In this document: positions 3,836 to 53,477 of the stretch, in pieces
Numbering within the stretch: position 1 is the first letter of the stretch
Layout of the letters: each line of letters starts with the position of its first letter
Assembly: GCA_001778235.1 (NCBI GenBank)
Contig: MFGJ01000006.1
Coordinates: 7,121 to 71,120, forward strand
DNA: 64,000 nucleotides
From: Candidatus Falkowbacteria bacterium RIFOXYC2_FULL_36_12
GTDB taxonomy: Bacteria > Patescibacteriota > Patescibacteriia > UBA11705
Direction: 5' to 3'
Position numbers and translations under genes: made by a program
Notes under the pieces: model-generated
What the model saw: only the letters and a program-made list of their open reading frames with translations
Databases searched by the model: none
What the model was told of the DNA's origin: nothing

Positions 3836-5176
3836 ATGAGAGTACTGCTTATTAGTCCTAATATCTTGGGTGTAAGAGGTGGTATTAATAGAATCCAGCC
3901 ACCACTGGGGCTTGGTTATGTCGCAAGCTTTGCAAGGCAAGCTGGTCACGAGGTTTTTGTTCGTGATACTGCTTTGGAAGGTTATGGCAATCAAATTGAA
4001 TTAGACAATGGATTGATAAGAATTGGCGAAACTGATGATCAGATAAGGGCTTTTATTAGAAAAATAAATCCTGATGTTGTAGGTATAACTGCCACCTTGT
4101 CCAATTTGGAAGTTGCTGCTTTGGAAGTTGCAAGACTGACCAAGGAGGTAAATCCGCAGATTGTGACTGTGCTTGGGGGGAACCATATTAGCTTTTCTGA
4201 TAAAGATTATGATGTTGATTATGTGGTTAAAGGCGAAGGAGAGATTGCTTTTGTTAAATTGTTGGAAGAATTGGGAAAGGGGAATAACCCAAATAAAGTA
4301 ATAGTCGGTATAGCTTTTGAAAATTTGAATCATCTGCCAAGTCCTGCGCGTGATTTAATGAATATGGAGGCCTATTTCAGAATTAATTTGTTTCATTCTA
4401 GTCGAAGTGATAAACGAATTTTGAATGTGATGACTAGCCGAGGTTGTCCTCATAGCTGTTCTTTTTGTACCAGTCCACAAATGTGGGGGCGACGAGTGCG
4501 ATTTAGAGATGCTAGCAATGTAATGGCGGAAATTGTTGAGGCGATTGAGAAATATGGTATTGAGGAGGTTCAATTTGAGGATGATACTCTGACTGTTAAT
4601 TATCAAAGGCTGATGGAATTGTGTGATTTATTACGGCCGCCACATAACATTCAGTGGTGTGTCCCCAATGGGATTAGAATAAATTGCCATAGTTCAAAGC
4701 AAGATCAAATGTTTAAGCGGATGAAAGAGTCAGGTTGTTATCAAGTTACGCTGGCTTGTGAAAGTGGTTGTCAGAGAGTACTGGATCAAATTTTAAATAA
4801 AAATTTAAAATTAGCTGAAATTAAACCAGCGATTAGAAAAGCTCATGATGCCGGTCTTCTAGTCCATACTTTTTGGCTGGTTGGCTCACCTGGTGAGACC
4901 AAGTCAGAAATGGAACAAACAATTGCATTTGCGCAAAGTTGTGGAGCAGATAGTTATTCGGTCAGCATTCTATGTCCATTGCCTGGAACTAGGGTCAATG
5001 ATGAGGTTGAGCAGAAAAATCTATGGTGGACTGGCATTGATTTGAAACAGATGATTTACAGAAAATCTTTATTCAAAGTTGATGGATTTAGTTGTGCCGA
5101 GGATTTTGAAGCTTGGGCAGAGGAACAAAATAGAGTTCTTAATCAGGGGGATAAAATTGAAGTAAAGCAAACATAA
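3836..5176 (+). CDS. B12-binding domain / radical SAM protein
   Basis: CX3CX2C motif (SRGCPHSCSFCTS) after an N-terminal B12-binding-like domain (MRVLLISPN...). The in-frame ATG at 3836 is preceded by GGCGGAGGAA, so it is preferred over the ORF-track start at 3755. Confidence 0.8.
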   Translation: MRVLLISPNILGVRGGINRIQPPLGLGYVASFARQAGHEVFVRDTALEGYGNQIELDNGLIRIGETDDQIRAFIRKINPDVVGITATLSNLEVAALEVARLTKEVNPQIVTVLGGNHISFSDKDYDVDYVVKGEGEIAFVKLLEELGKGNNPNKVIVGIAFENLNHLPSPARDLMNMEAYFRINLFHSSRSDKRILNVMTSRGCPHSCSFCTSPQMWGRRVRFRDASNVMAEIVEAIEKYGIEEVQFEDDTLTVNYQRLMELCDLLRPPHNIQWCVPNGIRINCHSSKQDQMFKRMKESGCYQVTLACESGCQRVLDQILNKNLKLAEIKPAIRKAHDAGLLVHTFWLVGSPGETKSEMEQTIAFAQSCGADSYSVSILCPLPGTRVNDEVEQKNLWWTGIDLKQMIYRKSLFKVDGFSCAEDFEAWAEEQNRVLNQGDKIEVKQT

Positions 5177-5484: not shown

Positions 5485-6483
5485 ATGCCAAAAAGAGTTG
5501 CTATCAATGGTTTTGGTCGCATTGGGAGGGCTGTGGCCAAGGTATTGTTGAGCAAAGGCTCAAAGTATCAAATTGTAGCTATTAATGATTTGGGAAATTG
5601 GGATAATTTAGCTTATCTTATGAAGTATGATTCTGCTTATGGCAGATATGATAAACCAGTAGAAATGGTTGGAAAAAACTTGAAAATTGGGAATAAATTA
5701 ATTCCGGTTTTATCAGATCCAAACCCAGCCAAATTGCCTTGGAAGAGATTGAAAGTAGATGTTGTGCTTGAATGTACTGGTGCTTTTACCAAAAAAGAGG
5801 AAGCTGGTAAACATTTGAAAGCTGGGGCAAAGAGTGTTATTATTTCTGCTCCAAGTAATAGTGATGGGATTGTTACTGTAGTAAAAGGTGTAAATGAAAA
5901 GATGGCGAAAAATGCTGGTGTTGTGGCCAATGCATCTTGTACCACCAATTGTACCGGTCCGGTGATGGCAGTGCTCGAGAGTGTTTTTGGCGTTGAAAAA
6001 GCTTTGTTAACAACGATTCACGCTGTAACTGCTTCACAGAGAACTGTTGATTTGCCGACTGAAGATGATTATCGGCGAGGCAGGTCTGCGCTCAATAATC
6101 TGATCCCAACAACAACTGGTGCAGCCATTGCGACAACTTTAACCTTACCATCTTTGAAAGATAAGTTTGATGGAATTTCAATTCGCGTACCAATGATTAC
6201 AGGTTCGCTAGTTGATATTACAGCTTTGTTGAGAAAAAATACTAGCGTCAAGGAAATTAATAATGCTTTTATTAAGTACTCTAAAATGCCAAGATTCAGA
6301 GGAATTCTTGAGGTGACTGAAGATGAGCTTGTTTCCAGTGATATTATTGGAACTGCAGCTTCAGCTATTGTTGATTTGAAATTTACCAAAGTAGTTGATG
6401 GCAATTTGGTGAAAATATTGGCTTGGTATGATAATGAATGGGGTTATTCAAATAGATTGGCAGAAATGGTTGATGAGGTTTAA
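5485..6483 (+). CDS. gap: type I glyceraldehyde-3-phosphate dehydrogenase
   Basis: NGFGRIGR NAD-binding motif and active-site ASCTTNC. Confidence 0.9.
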   Translation: MPKRVAINGFGRIGRAVAKVLLSKGSKYQIVAINDLGNWDNLAYLMKYDSAYGRYDKPVEMVGKNLKIGNKLIPVLSDPNPAKLPWKRLKVDVVLECTGAFTKKEEAGKHLKAGAKSVIISAPSNSDGIVTVVKGVNEKMAKNAGVVANASCTTNCTGPVMAVLESVFGVEKALLTTIHAVTASQRTVDLPTEDDYRRGRSALNNLIPTTTGAAIATTLTLPSLKDKFDGISIRVPMITGSLVDITALLRKNTSVKEINNAFIKYSKMPRFRGILEVTEDELVSSDIIGTAASAIVDLKFTKVVDGNLVKILAWYDNEWGYSNRLAEMVDEV

Positions 6484-45377: not shown

Positions 45378-45557
45378 CAGCTAATGGGCTGCGCCTAATG
45401 CGAAGTTGCGGACGGGTAGCGGAGCTACCCGACGGGCAATGTCGCATAGGCGCTGTTGTGCGATGCCATAGCGAGCACACAGCGCCGGAGGCGCAGCCCA
45501 TTGTGCAAAACAACGGGAGCGACACGCGGAGCGTGTGCGAGCGGTTTTGCACAACGT
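45378..45557. repeat. GC-rich structured element, copy A (the GC-rich region extends to about 45700)
   Basis: The GC content is far above the flanks. Long-range complementary pairs are visible: TGGGCTGCGCC/GGCGCAGCCCA, TTGTGCAAAAC/GTTTTGCACAA, CGGGTAGC/GCTACCCG, ACACGC-GGA-GCGTGT. A near-identical copy sits at 48316-48515. Confidence 0.7.
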
Positions 45558-45810
45558 TTCAGTATATGCGATGTTTTGCGTAGTGAAACGGAGCAAAATA
45601 TGGGAGAGCGAAGTGCAACGAGCGAACTGCATATACTGTGTTAGGCGAGCCGAACGAAGCGATAGCGGAGTGAGAGTGCAACGTGCCTTGCGTATTTTTG
45701 AAAAATTTATCCATATTATTCCGTTTTTGGTGGGCTTTTTATTGTATTTGATTTTTTTGTTTTGAAAAATGGAAGAGGGGCTGGGGGTGAATTCCATTTT
45801 TCAAAACTCC

Positions 45811-48315: not shown

Positions 48316-48515
48316 CGCCTAATGGGCTGCGCCTAATGCGAAGTTGCGGACGGGTAGCGGAGCTATCCGACAGGCAATTTCGTATAGGCGCTGTTGTGCG
48401 CTTGTCCGCCTGAGGCGGGATGCCATGCGAGCACACAGCGCCGGAGGCGCAGCCCATTGTGCAAAACAACGGGAGCGACACGCGGAGCGTGTGCGAGCGG
48501 TTTTGCACAACGTTC
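48316..48515. repeat. GC-rich structured element, copy B (the GC-rich region runs about 48300-48650)
   Basis: Direct repeat of copy A with a 19-bp hairpin insertion (CCGCCTGAGGCGG). Confidence 0.7.
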
Positions 48516-48718
48516 ACCGATATCAGATGTGTCGCCGTTGTTTCTGCGCTCAAATTTTGGGTTATCACATTACTTGCTCCTTGCTGTGAACATTCACATT
48601 ACGAAGCGGCATATGGGAGAAGAAAATTGCGACACCTTTGAAATTATTAAGAGCAATTTTCTGAACCTGATATCGGTTGTTAGCTGATGTAATTAAAATT
48701 TTCTCCCCCCCATATCAT

Positions 48719-50378: not shown

Positions 50379-51761
50379 TTACATTCCTGGTGGTAGGTTT
50401 CGGTGTTGTTCAATTGTTTTAAATGATGCTTGAGACCCTTCGAAGAAGAATTTAATTGTTCCTGTTGGGCCGTTTCTGTGTTTAGCAATGTGAACTTCGG
50501 CTGAACTTTTTTCTTCTGGGGTAAGCTCTTCAATGTTGTAATTGCGATCAGCTGCTTTACGATAAATAAACATAACTATGTCAGCGTCTTGTTCAATAGA
50601 ACCTGATTCACGCAAGTGAGAAAGTTTTGGAATAGCTGGTTTATTCATTTCCACAGCACGGGAAAGCTGTGATAAGGCGAGAATTGGAATATCAAGTTCA
50701 CGGGCTATTTGTTTCAGACCACGAGAAATTTCAGAGACTGCTTGTAAACGGTTTTCAGCACCTGGTCGGCCTTCCATCAGTTGCATATAGTCGACAACAA
50801 TTAAACCAAGACCTTTTTCCATTTTTAATCTTCTAGATTTAGTCCTGACATCAATAATGTTTAGTCCAGCTGAATCATCAATATAGATGGGTGCTTCAGA
50901 TAAAACCCCCATGGCATGTCCAAGTCTCTGGAAGTCATCATCACCTTCGCCTGAAGATAATTTTCCGGTTCTGATTTTCCATAGATCAATGCCTGATTGG
51001 GCGCAAAGCATACGATCGACCAGCTGTTCTTTGCTCATTTCCAAACTAAAATAGCCGACAGATATTTTTGACTCAACAGCAACTTTTCTGGCAATGTCTA
51101 ATGCTAATGAAGTTTTCCCAACTGAAGGACGAGCTGCCAAGATAACTAAATCTGATTTTTGCAAACCAGCGAGATGATTATCAAGGTCACGAAAACCAGT
51201 TGGTACGCCTCGAAGTTCGCCAGCGTTTTTGTGTAGATCATCAATACGGTCAAAAGCATCGGTTAAAACAGAGGAAATAGGAACAAAAGATTTTTTTTGA
51301 TTTTTTTGTGAGACTGTAAAAAGTTCTTGTTCAGCAGAATCAATGATTGCATCAACATCTTCATCTTCTTGATAACCAAGGTTGGTAATTTTATTAGCAG
51401 CCATGAGCAGGCGTCTAAGTGTGGCTTTTTTTACAACAATTTTGGCGTAGTTGACAATGTTTGATGAGGTAGCAATCGAGTTGGTTAAATTGACCAGATA
51501 ACTTCGACCACCTACTTGTTCAAGCAATTTTTTTTCATCTAATAGATTTGTCAGTGTCAGTAAATCAATTGGATCATGACGGCTGTATAGTTCCATCATG
51601 TTTTCATAAATCTGTTCGTGGGCTTTTTTGTAAAAATCAGGAGCATTGATAATGTCAGCGATTTTATAAAAAGATTCATTGTCAATCAAAATAGAGCCAA
51701 GCAGTGATTGTTCTGCTTCAAGGTTTTGTGGTGGGATTTTACCTAAATTTTCACTGCTCAT
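50379..51761 (-). CDS. dnaB: replicative DNA helicase
   Basis: Walker A GKTSLALD, Walker B IVVDYMQLM and a DnaB N-terminal domain. There is no intein. Confidence 0.9.
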   Translation of the reverse strand: MSSENLGKIPPQNLEAEQSLLGSILIDNESFYKIADIINAPDFYKKAHEQIYENMMELYSRHDPIDLLTLTNLLDEKKLLEQVGGRSYLVNLTNSIATSSNIVNYAKIVVKKATLRRLLMAANKITNLGYQEDEDVDAIIDSAEQELFTVSQKNQKKSFVPISSVLTDAFDRIDDLHKNAGELRGVPTGFRDLDNHLAGLQKSDLVILAARPSVGKTSLALDIARKVAVESKISVGYFSLEMSKEQLVDRMLCAQSGIDLWKIRTGKLSSGEGDDDFQRLGHAMGVLSEAPIYIDDSAGLNIIDVRTKSRRLKMEKGLGLIVVDYMQLMEGRPGAENRLQAVSEISRGLKQIARELDIPILALSQLSRAVEMNKPAIPKLSHLRESGSIEQDADIVMFIYRKAADRNYNIEELTPEEKSSAEVHIAKHRNGPTGTIKFFFEGSQASFKTIEQHRNLPPGM

Positions 51762-51888
51762 AGTATGTTGTTAGTACCCTTATTTTATCTTAATTCTAGG
51801 CTATAAACAAGTTGATAATATGTTGATAATTATAGTGTTTTTAATTCGGTTAATATGCCTAAATTTAGCTAAATTTATTGGTTGCCTG

Positions 51889-51917
51889 TTGACAAAGTTA
51901 AAAATCTGTGATATAAT
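51889..51917 (+). promoter_or_regulatory. consensus sigma70 promoter with an extended -10
   Basis: TTGACA, 17 bp, TGaTATAAT. Confidence 0.7.
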
Positions 51918-51923
51918 GATTAG

Positions 51924-52548
51924 TCGTGAAGATGGAAGTATCCGTGGTCGGAGCTTTCCATCAGATCGGTTGCAGTACATCTTTCCTGGATGCTGAGGCA
52001 TTCTTGACGGCGCCCAAGGAGCTTTCCTCGTGCGACTTGTACTGACCCCGTTGACCCGCTTTCGACACCAAGCGGTGAGGGGCCTTTGAAATCAGGGTGT
52101 CAGGTCTGCGAAGCTCGCGGGGACCTTAAATACCGCAGAGTTAGATTGCCACGGCAATCGAATTGCTACTAGCTCATGGACTGCCAAGAGGCGGATATGA
52201 ATCTCCTGACGCGGTAGTTAGCTCTCAGAACAAAACCTCGACACCGGTCGATCAAGTAAGAAAAACAGCGATGTACGATGATCGAGGTTGAGCTGGGAGG
52301 GTAAACTGGGCGTAGACAACAAGACGCAGTTGGCGTATGAGTCGAAGCGCCCAAAGCGCGTAAACCAGAGTTGATCTGTGTGGCTCGCAGTAGCCCACGG
52401 ACGACTCATAATGTCATGGGAAAGGAAGAAGCCATGACAAAGGCAAGGCCACCGCCGTTGTAAAATTCTCTGCGGAGATTCAACGACGACGACAGCGCCG
52501 AACCCCCGGAATCGCCATGCGATCGGGGGTTGTGTTTTTTTAAATTTA
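51924..52548 (+). ncRNA. unclassified GC-rich structured RNA of about 620 nt (candidate large ncRNA)
   Basis: A consensus promoter lies upstream. The transcript ends in an 11-bp GC stem (CCCCCG...CGGGGG) followed by TTGTGTTTTTTT. The GC content is much higher than in flanking DNA. No plus-strand ORF longer than about 20 codons is present. Confidence 0.55.
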
Positions 52549-52610
52549 ATTTTTAATTTGAACAAAACTGCCGACCAGGAGCTTGGCTCCTGGTCGGCAG
52601 TAATAAACAG

Positions 52611-53477
52611 TTACTTTTTTGTTTGAGTTTGTTTATTGAAAAGTTGTAGTGTATTTTTTAGTAAATAAGCAATGGTCATGGGACCGACTCCACCTGGAAC
52701 GGGTGTGATGAATGAAGCCTTTAGAATAACATTGTTTGCATCAACATCACCGACTGTTTCACCTGAAATTTCATTTATCCCAATATCAATTACTATTGCA
52801 TTATCTTTTATAAATTTATTATTGACGAATTTTGGTTTGCCAATGGCAACAATCAGAATATCAGCTTCATGACATTTTTCTTGTGCCTGATGATCATTGA
52901 GTGAAGTAAAAATTATTTTATTGTTTTTTTCATATAAAAATTTAAATGGTTCTGCAAAAATTTCATGATTGGCAAAAATTGTGATAATTTTGTTGTTTAA
53001 TTCAGTTTTTGTTTCTTGAATCAGACGGTCAACTCCGAGTACAAGCGGTGAAAGAATTGTTGGTTTACCTAACTTGATTTTTTCTATATTTTTTGGATGA
53101 AAACCATCGACATCTTTATTCTGGTCAATTGATAATATTATTTTATTAGCATCAAATTTTTCAGGTAATGGTAATTGAACTAAGATGGCGTTGGTTTCCT
53201 CGTCAGCATTTAGGAATTTTATAACTTCAATTATTTCTTTTTCTGATGAAGATTCGTCAAATTTATATAAATGAAAATTGATGTTGGCATTGAGACAAGC
53301 TCTTTGTTTCAAAGAAACATATAGTTCAGAGGCTGGATCATTGCCAACAAGAATAACAGCTAAACCAGGTTCAATTTTATTTGAATTTATTGTTTTGTAT
53401 GTCTCTAAATTGATTTGTTCTGCCAGATATTTGCCATCAATTATTTGACATTTAAGTTTTGGACCTGTGATTTTCAT
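52611..53477 (-). CDS. folD: bifunctional methylene-THF dehydrogenase/cyclohydrolase
   Basis: LAVILVGNDPAS...YV..K motif and GxGxxVG in the NAD(P)-binding half. Confidence 0.9.
   Translation of the reverse strand: MKITGPKLKCQIIDGKYLAEQINLETYKTINSNKIEPGLAVILVGNDPASELYVSLKQRACLNANINFHLYKFDESSSEKEIIEVIKFLNADEETNAILVQLPLPEKFDANKIILSIDQNKDVDGFHPKNIEKIKLGKPTILSPLVLGVDRLIQETKTELNNKIITIFANHEIFAEPFKFLYEKNNKIIFTSLNDHQAQEKCHEADILIVAIGKPKFVNNKFIKDNAIVIDIGINEISGETVGDVDANNVILKASFITPVPGGVGPMTIAYLLKNTLQLFNKQTQTKK

Follow-up and report, generated by a model that had tools for sequence, protein, structure and literature searches.

We identify an independent promoter-to-terminator unit without a conventional gene at positions 51889-52548 of a 64,000-nt stretch of the Candidatus Falkowbacteria bacterium RIFOXYC2_FULL_36_12 genome (contig MFGJ01000006.1; this whole stretch is hereafter called the window). 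The unit lies on the + strand between dnaB and the folD-glyA operon, and its GC-rich RNA of about 620 nt contains a nine-codon mini-open reading frame (mini-ORF), preceded by a Shine-Dalgarno (SD)-like sequence, that holds an RxPP motif of the kind found at the core of ribosome arrest peptides. Related Falkowbacteria have similar promoters at the same place (loci are given by our L numbers), and such mini-ORFs recur in the downstream RNAs far above chance. We propose, at what we judge to be an even chance of being right, that the unit specifies a lineage-specific structured RNA whose conserved module, the SD-led RxPP mini-ORF, would load and stall a ribosome.

SD-led mini-ORFs with arrest-type motifs

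The window mini-ORF occupies 52434-52463 on the + strand (ATG ACA AAG GCA AGG CCA CCG CCG TTG TAA, encoding MTKARPPPL-stop). Its R-P-P-P codons lie at 52446-52457 and its stop at 52461-52463, and an AAGGA at 52422-52426 precedes the ATG with a spacing of 7 nt. On both strands of the 64 kb, it is the sole SD-led mini-ORF of up to 25 amino acids (aa) with an arrest-type motif under a broader regular expression. The counterparts in relatives read MIRAPPVH-stop in L099; MIRAPPS.., MPRDPP-stop and MRYIRDGP-stop in L093; MIRGPP-stop in L096; MRVCFARGPP-stop, from a TTG start, in L091; and ..NPRDGPNVLM-stop in L097. The RxPP variants in relatives are RAPP (two), RGPP (two) and RDPP.

The relatives' transcripts hold many short ORFs behind strong SDs. 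When mini-ORFs with an ATG start, a length of at most 25 aa and an SD 4-13 nt upstream are counted, the transcript strands have 27 and the reverse strands 1, with a mean of 5.1 in dinucleotide shuffles. With the published arrest motif set, R[AGSDP]PP or RAGP (PMC12992588), seven mini-ORFs (six of them independent) fall within 7,256 nt of transcript strand, where 3000 dinucleotide shuffles predict 0.013; the window RNA alone contributes one against 0.002 expected from dinucleotide shuffles. SD-led mini-ORFs with the same set extended by RDGP occur zero times on the reverse strands of the transcripts and zero times in 2.19 Mb of other DNA (both strands), mostly loci of the candidate phyla radiation (CPR), high-GC ones included. 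The hexapeptide M-I-R-A-P-P is encoded by ATGATCCGCGCTCCCCCG in L099 and by ATGATTAGAGCACCCCCG in L093, with five differences that are all synonymous; five synonymous and zero non-synonymous changes are a signature of peptide selection or of convergent evolution towards MIRAPP. Beyond the promoter, the translated-looking RxPP mini-ORF is the only element common to the locus, and the transcript is probably not purely non-coding. A reading made earlier from the letters of the window alone (the sequence-only reading) had offered an unclassified large non-coding RNA (ncRNA) as one option; that description stands insofar as no covariance model claims the RNA, while its non-coding part probably fails on the mini-ORF.

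RAPP and RGPP form the core of the ApdA, ApdP and ApcA arrest peptides and RAGP that of SecM; in the arrested state R-A-P occupies the P site and Pro-tRNA the A site, and the arrest is refractory to EF-P (PMC12992588, PMC10951233). Arrest is most robust with RAPP and RGPP, RGPP being the strongest of all variants, while RDPP, RSPP and RPPP are partially permissive, with the ApdP A132P mutant retaining almost wild-type strength in B. subtilis (PMC12992588, PMC10951233). In ApdA and ApdP reporters, RxPP with proline as x gives partial to strong arrest (PMC12992588). RxPP was also independently selected out of random libraries, and bacterial proteomes avoid RAPP-like tetrapeptides more than any others (PMC12992588, PMC10951233). 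An isoleucine precedes the arginine in ApdP (CIRAPP) and SecM (GIRAGP) (PMC12992588, PMC10951233), as it does in MIRAPP, MIRGPP and YIRDGP of the relatives; the window has KARPPP.

Further short ORFs with weaker SD-like sequences lie at 52004-52290 on the + strand of the window: MNLLTR-stop (ATG at 52197), MRLVLTPLTRFRHQAVRGL-stop (GTG at 52030) and two with TTG starts at 52004 and 52086. Taken alone, these are no commoner than chance. L099 holds a series of related mini-ORFs, MRIRDQTY-stop, MRIRDSPS-stop and MIRIRDRP-stop, which suggests module duplication and divergence. The L097 RNA has an internal 58-nt repeat with a mini-ORF ending ..VAAD-stop in each copy. In distant CPR genomes, L013 has upstream of dnaB, and directed towards it, a GC-rich RNA of about 330 nt (~5600-5950) that seems to be non-coding and holds an SD-led MQPEQDHPP-stop; in L011 the region upstream of dnaB (~440-1000) has two GC-rich small ORFs (48 and 29 aa), each with a strong SD and a terminator of its own; neither island has sequence similarity to the window RNA. 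Mini-ORFs ending in PP in other CPR GC islands were set aside, the one in L011 lying inside a real gene and that in L035 probably being due to chance.

A predicted independent transcription unit

The promoter consists of a TTGACA -35 hexamer (51889-51894, + strand) and, across a 17-nt spacer, an extended -10 element, TGaTATAAT (51909-51917); transcription would start at about 51922-51926. The sequence-only reading had singled it out as the best promoter in the window, and the promoter scan agrees: it scores 12/12 plus the TG extension, stands at the top of 15 promoter-like sites between 50 and 54 kb, and is the one exact TTGACA-N16-18-TATAAT on either strand of the 64 kb, against 0.04 expected. 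The transcript body predicted from promoter, composition and terminator (51924-52541, + strand, ~618 nt) has a GC content of about 0.53 (G 29%, A 25%, C 24%, T 21%). GC is 0.51-0.555 in 200-nt windows over 51900-52499, against 0.25-0.40 in the flanks and about 35% in the genome, and the bin 52001-52400, at 0.542, is the maximum among all 160 bins of the window. The earlier description of this region as GC-rich and ORF-free also holds, with no + strand ORF in the element exceeding 42 aa; a - strand ORF of 115 aa, longer than any other, crosses the terminator and is without a Pfam match.

The unit ends in an intrinsic terminator at 52501-52541, recognized from sequence and fold. A GC-rich hairpin with a GA bulge and a CAU loop (52501-52531; AACCCCCG-GA-ATCGC / CAT / GCGAT-CGGGGGTT) is followed by GUG and U7 (52535-52541). 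The hairpin and the U-tract are as first described, except that the stem, given as 11 bp, consists of 8+5 bp separated by a 2-nt bulge. A consensus terminator scan did not report this terminator, which we attribute to the misfit between a 2-nt-bulged stem and the simple definition of a stem with a 3-8-nt loop. Outside the RNA, at 52567-52601, the terminator scan places the terminator of the folD-glyA operon on the - strand, a perfect 16-bp hairpin (inverted repeat I1) whose T-run is on the - strand only; the convergent folD ends about 70 nt beyond the unit. The unit is divergent from dnaB (50379-51761, - strand) and convergent with folD-glyA, and we infer that its RNA is made, abundant and stable.

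All 628 nt of the element recur at 100% identity, and between folD and dnaB, in six of the ten loci fetched (L081-L085 and L087); these contigs come from separate samples in ENA, NCBI and Logan and set a lower bound on the number of assemblies. The window DnaB is 100% identical to a protein of Candidatus Falkowbacteria bacterium RIFOXYD2_FULL_35_9, and the exact FolD protein is present on 23 contigs. Given an identical element in at least six independent assemblies, it is not a mis-assembly, a chimera or a mis-binned fragment; of the possibility raised earlier, a mis-assembled and unconserved fragment, only the lack of conservation in the body survives. Three contigs of the window species (L086, L088 and L090) end within the element, at RNA positions 405, 429 and 485, and the relatives' contigs L100 and L108 likewise break inside or right beside the folD-dnaB RNA locus. 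These breaks suggest co-existing alleles, that is population hypervariability, or GC-related loss of coverage.

A promoter-anchored locus in Falkowbacteria

The nearest relatives stand at 79% DnaB identity, and the protein database is empty between 79% and about 96%. Their gene order is glyA-folD-[gap]-dnaB-ybaB-recR, and the gap, which contains no gene, measures 390-2140 bp: 1380 bp in L091 (DnaB 79%), 520 bp in L096 (78%), 2090 bp in L093 (76%), 1820 bp in L099 (75%), 2140 bp in L097 (74%) and 390 bp in L105 (71%). Two further relatives at 71% are without a GC-rich RNA, L103 having an AT-rich gap and L104 no gap. Every gap that is not AT-rich contains TTGACA and TATAAT 16-17 nt apart, usually with TGn, directed away from dnaB. 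The syntenic TTGACA is perfect in L091, L093 (two promoters), L096, L097, L099 (two promoters) and L105; TATAAT is found in eight of the nine listed promoters (L105 has TAAAAT), and six of the nine have an extended -10 of the TGnTATAAT type. In most relatives an ORF-free GC-rich stretch follows, although that of L099 barely exceeds the GC of its genome, and the 3' ends, where read, are a hairpin and a T-run. Estimated transcript lengths are ~190 nt for L093a and L105, 355 for L096, 620 for the window, 920 for L091, 1500 for L093b and 1700 for L097, a range given across loci as about 190-1800 nt.

Similarity among the loci in blastn and nhmmer comparisons is confined to the promoters and ends at the transcription start. 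Six-frame comparison of the locus transcripts found no similarity, and no k-mers are shared among them beyond chance except GGAGGG, which is SD-like. By these comparisons, what is conserved at the locus is the promoter, and the GC-rich RNAs that it drives are either unrelated or diverged beyond recognition. Comparison of homologous intergenic regions, which the sequence-only reading had looked to for covariation, yields no alignable similarity beyond the promoter in relatives at 74-79% DnaB identity. Among 80 GTDB species representatives reached via DnaB (at most 66% identity), nhmmer and blastn gave no match to the RNA, and outside Falkowbacteria the gap upstream of dnaB is short or unrelated. 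Unrelated transcripts of 190-1800 nt in the nearest relatives, together with the gapless L104, therefore argue against an essential, deeply conserved RNA, and the earlier suggestion of a very divergent essential RNA, for which not even a weak RNase P, tmRNA, SRP or 6S match appears at E<=10, does not survive. The best reading of the locus is that the RNA belongs to a Falkowbacteria-specific, promoter-anchored family whose body would turn over too fast to leave residual similarity.

Complete sequence replacement between close relatives could also mean that the locus is non-functional or selfish DNA, a recombination or insertion hotspot beside a strong divergent promoter that acquires GC-rich filler from mobile or foreign remnants. 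The L097 cassette between 36-bp direct repeats, the contig breaks in or beside the locus (in the same five contigs, L086, L088, L090, L100 and L108) and the lack of a GC-rich RNA in L103 and L104 fit this view. We nevertheless consider it very unlikely, as high GC and excess folding are kept against the AT bias of the genome, and promoter and terminator are conserved, as is the arrest mini-ORF, whose changes are synonymous. Protein-coding remnants, Pfam matches and codon periodicity are all absent from the element. Blastn against phages and plasmids found no homologue of the window RNA, and scans of viral contigs and metagenomes gave only chance 20-22-mers: two matches from a 22-mer scan of JGI metagenomes, in high-GC efflux-pump-like genes, and one from four 20-22-mer scans of IMG/VR, within a phage gene. 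The element occurs only once in the window, and neither terminal inverted repeats nor a miniature inverted-repeat transposable element could be recognized convincingly.

Several features of individual relatives accompany the locus. In L097, 36-bp direct repeats (94-97% identical; ~4868-4903 and 2884-2919, gap positions 98-133 and 2082-2117) contain a GGAGCC-AAA-GGCTC hairpin and enclose the whole promoter-plus-RNA cassette; they look like insertion or recombination scars or elements resembling repetitive extragenic palindromes (REP-like). Tandem consensus promoters with two successive GC-rich RNAs occur in L093 (4640-4880 and 2950-4490, - strand) and L099 (3182-4800, - strand). Between dnaB and the RNA promoter of L091, a nearly perfect inverted repeat of ~170 nt (4724-4897) gives weak Rfam matches to plant microRNA precursors (E = 0.05-1). 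A relative at 79% DnaB identity without the RNA locus (L094 2676-3047 / L095 1858-2229) has, between dnaB and ybaB, an inserted 123-aa gene of the bAvd / 23S-rRNA-IVP family, the family of the accessory protein of diversity-generating retroelements.

Known RNA families and coding potential

The size and GC content of the element resemble those of large structured RNAs, and its frame +1 has a single stop when TGA is read as sense, so that a divergent member of a known RNA family, or an ordinary protein gene possibly with a recoded stop, had to be considered. Both are effectively refuted. We scanned the whole window with the 4227 models of Rfam 15 at gathering score, and 51700-52700 also at E<=10; the former gave zero matches anywhere in the 64 kb and the latter only noise (small nucleolar RNA, microRNA and terminator-like). 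ARAGORN found no tRNA or transfer-messenger RNA (tmRNA) in the window, and Rfam, run at gathering and E-value thresholds, assigned no family to the relatives' transcripts from three loci. RNase P RNA (RNaseP_bact_a/b) is without a match even at E<=10 in 51700-52700, and tmRNA without one in either ARAGORN or Rfam. Signal recognition particle (SRP) RNA and 6S RNA are likewise unmatched at E<=10, and the minimum free energy (MFE) structure is a multibranched 618-nt fold, no rod; the likeness of the loop GAAAGGAAGAAG to the SRP GGAA/AGCA motif is superficial only. OLE, GOLLD, ROOL, HEARO, raiA and group I/II introns gave no covariance-model match, with only noise at E<=10. The sequence-only reading had failed to find RNase P, tmRNA or SRP by eye, as Rfam and ARAGORN now confirm, and the Rfam scan it had proposed (RNase P, tmRNA, SRP, 6S, OLE/GOLLD/ROOL) assigned no family. 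These known families are thus excluded as far as covariance models can see.

A protein-coding reading fares no better. GC by codon phase is flat (0.54/0.52/0.54), all three stops occur in all frames, there is no Pfam match, no six-frame similarity and no conservation in relatives, and recoding TGA does not rescue a frame; the neighbouring genes read normally in table 11. A CsrB/RsmZ-type sponge was rejected, since GGA occurs 13 times against ~13 expected from composition and does not lie in loops: of the 115 hairpin loops predicted for the locus family, 6 contain it. Complementarity of the RNA to the rest of the window is limited to 11-13-mers, the chance level.

Folding of the RNA

The candidate structured RNA of the sequence-only reading folds better than dinucleotide shuffles, with z from -3.2 to -3.8: the MFE of the window RNA is -232.9 kcal/mol (z -3.8, 20 shuffles), and with 60 shuffles z is -3.2 for the + strand and -3.4 for the - strand. 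The L091 transcript reaches z = -7.5, and antisense strands score similarly. Three hairpins on the + strand stand out in the predicted fold. A 5'-proximal one, GAUGGAA...UUCCAUC (51931-51962; inverted repeat I4), and one at 52412-52439, an 8-bp stem UGUCAUGG / CCAUGACA closing the 12-nt loop GAAAGGAAGAAG, are present in both MFE and centroid structures. The latter presents the SD-like AAGGA (52422-52426) in its loop (52420-52431) and holds the AUG of the mini-ORF in its 3' arm. The third, CGUUGU...UCUC-UGCG-GAGA...(U)CAACG (52456-52489), overlaps with its 5' arm the last sense codon and the stop of the mini-ORF. No local structure common to the mini-ORFs of the loci was found. When the footprint of a stalled ribosome (52438-52469) is forced to be unpaired, the hairpin at 52456-52489 is lost and the terminator hairpin persists; an antiterminator in the 3' region of the window RNA was rejected on this unchanged terminator.

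The predicted loops are enriched neither in GNRA tetraloops, which are typical of evolved structured RNAs, nor in GGA. As modelled, the RNA is hairpin-rich yet lacks the look of a classical tertiary fold under deep selection. This bears on an alternative in which the RNA is a trans-acting structured ncRNA of an undescribed, very fast-evolving class that works through its fold or through protein binding, the mini-ORF being incidental or secondary. A GC island in an AT-rich genome, a stable-RNA-type promoter, a strong terminator, folding energies well below those of shuffles and a body that is purine-rich on the transcribed strand all speak for it, as does the 95% of the RNA that lies outside the mini-ORF. 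But the syntenic RNAs at 74-79% DnaB identity, whose lengths range over 190-1800 nt, have neither sequence nor alignable structure in common with it, antisense z-scores are equally negative, predicted loops show no enrichment of GNRA or UNCG tetraloops and no GGA-in-loop pattern, and the mini-ORF enrichment lies far above chance. We regard this alternative as unlikely.

Discussion

We infer that the window mini-ORF is translated and stalls ribosomes. In the mechanism we propose, a ribosome would bind the SD exposed in the loop at 52420-52431, open the stem that holds the AUG and translate MTKARPPPL. It would stall with R-P-P in the P site (52452-52454) and Pro-tRNA in the A site, through a short-circuit of peptidyl transfer as in ApdA, ApdP and SecM. 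The parked ribosome would then melt the hairpin at 52456-52489, remodel the 3' domain and remain on the RNA. The RNA would thus have a dual function and engage ribosomes so as to sense or titrate translational capacity; it would be neither a ribozyme nor a housekeeping RNA. Release by pulling force requires over ~30 aa beyond the tunnel (PMC10987492). A nine-codon peptide could therefore not be pulled from outside the ribosome, and its arrest would be constitutive or relieved by rescue or ABCF factors or by drop-off. The lack of an external pull in turn favours ribosome parking or sequestration, or minigene-type peptidyl-tRNA effects.

Among known systems, the RAPP-like arrest peptides (ApdA, ApdP, ApcA, SecM and the RAPP/RGPP upstream ORFs of Streptomyces) are closest in their C-terminal RxPP or RAGP core, often after isoleucine, in their small SD-led ORF on a regulatory transcript, and in the stall, predicted here, in which R-x-P sits in the P site and the A site holds Pro-tRNA. 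The window mini-ORF has such a core near its C-terminus (K-A-R-P-P-P-L-stop). Unlike the known peptides, which are ~50-300 aa long, have a signal peptide or transmembrane segment and are relieved by pulling force, the mini-ORFs have 6-20 codons (nine in the window), with neither a targeting signal nor the length for force-dependent release. Known arrest ORFs also immediately precede their target gene (secA, secDF, yidC and others), whereas there is no co-oriented downstream gene here: the window stop is 37 nt before the terminator, and the next gene, folD, is convergent.

ErmCL/ErmBL, TnaC, SpeFL and the lambda bar minigenes (AUG-AUA-stop) share the very short SD-led ORF, whose function is translation, stalling or peptidyl-tRNA drop-off and not the peptide; several mini-ORFs here end in Pro-stop, as does TnaC (..RP-stop). 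Those elements lie in the 5' leaders of target genes, or in a phage genome, and span 50-300 nt, whereas the unit here is free-standing, 620 nt long (up to 1.8 kb in relatives) and can carry several mini-ORFs per RNA. The dual-function RNAs RNAIII/hld (S. aureus), SgrS/SgrT and SR1/SR1P (B. subtilis) are also structured RNAs of a few hundred nucleotides with a strong promoter, an intrinsic terminator, a short internal ORF and a narrow phylogenetic range. Unlike the present RNA, with its unconserved body and no complementarity in the window, they have alignable homologues within the genus and known pairing targets. OLE, GOLLD, ROOL and raiA share the signature of a long (~600 nt), GC-rich, ORF-free intergenic region in an AT-rich genome, but have conserved blocks and covarying helices across many species, of which none are detectable here.

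A number of observations weigh against the arrest reading. The position of the mini-ORF varies: L091 and L096 have it close to the 5' end, and in the window, L093b and L097 it lies close to the 3' end. L093a, L097 and L105 are without a strict RxPP (RDSP, RDGP or none). The window RNA has a single motif ORF, which encodes RPPP, one of the weaker variants; the SD of this ORF, AAGGAAG, falls short of the relatives' GGAGG, and the AUG is base-paired within the 8-bp stem. Published RAPP arrests were measured on nascent chains far exceeding nine residues, and N-terminal context modulates stalling (PMC10951233). About 590 nt beyond the mini-ORF are left without explanation, and GNRA tetraloops are not enriched in the predicted loops of the locus family. 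With no downstream ORF and a terminator unaffected by footprint masking, the classic output in cis is missing. Transcription start, 3' end and translation are predictions.

One output in cis would be a translation-gated antisense or interference device on the convergent folD-glyA operon, in which ribosomes on the mini-ORF modulate termination and read-through RNA acts as antisense; it could couple one-carbon and formyl-Met supply to translation initiation. The RNA is always aimed at the 3' end of folD or of a gene inserted beside it, and on the + strand no T-run follows the second hairpin (52567-52601). In L093a, L105 and L096 the stop of the terminal SD-led mini-ORF is 3-6 nt from the terminator stem, where a terminating ribosome would occlude the hairpin. 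These distances bear on a comparison with leader-peptide transcription attenuators, in which the ribosome's place on the leader ORF selects a terminator or an antiterminator fold, as does the lack of a regulated gene downstream on the same strand. In the window, by contrast, 37 nt separate the stop from the stem, and masking the footprint leaves the terminator intact; a HAD gene (L093) and a repeat element (L097) lie between the RNA and folD, bodies of 600-1800 nt are unexplained, and the model is entirely inferential. We consider it quite unlikely.

Returning to the arrest reading, a broader form of it, which we put forward tentatively as a possibility well short of even, is that Falkowbacteria have a new class of RNA gene, in which a conserved stable-RNA-type promoter beside dnaB drives hypervariable RNAs, rich in GC and in hairpins, whose sole conserved active sites are very short RxPP arrest ORFs and which park ribosomes. 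Possible purposes in these organisms of minimal regulation are ribosome sequestering, sensing of the translation state or drop-off of peptidyl-tRNA(Pro); the arrest would be constitutive and independent of a pulling force of the secretion type. The arrest motif is already known; what is new is the architecture, with mini-ORFs of 6-20 codons on free-standing, hypervariable CPR RNAs without a cis target, and the lineage. Our literature search found no description of RxPP mini-ORFs in free-standing, hypervariable, GC-rich CPR RNAs. If the reading is right, arrest by RAPP and RGPP would extend from secretion-monitoring proteins to mini-ORFs of 6-10 codons, into the CPR and to free-standing RNAs without a target gene in cis, and RNAs devoted to holding ribosomes become possible. 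The heuristic that a GC-rich intergenic island is a conserved structured ncRNA can catch another kind of object, and elements anchored by promoter and peptide motif with complete nucleotide turnover are invisible to covariance-model pipelines.

Other GC-rich elements in the window

Another GC-rich element is present in the AT-rich DNA of the window as two ~95% identical copies of ~210 nt, at 48318-48525 and 45378-45570 (+ strand coordinates). Copy A has no Rfam match even at E<=1, and copy B overlaps a mechanical ORF at 45381-45797 on the - strand. One copy has an extra 19-nt hairpin, and the element has long-range complementary arms, AATGGGCTGCGCC...GGCGCAGCCCATT and GTGCAAAAC...GGTTTTGCAC. 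It is a candidate for a multi-copy structured RNA or a small mobile element.

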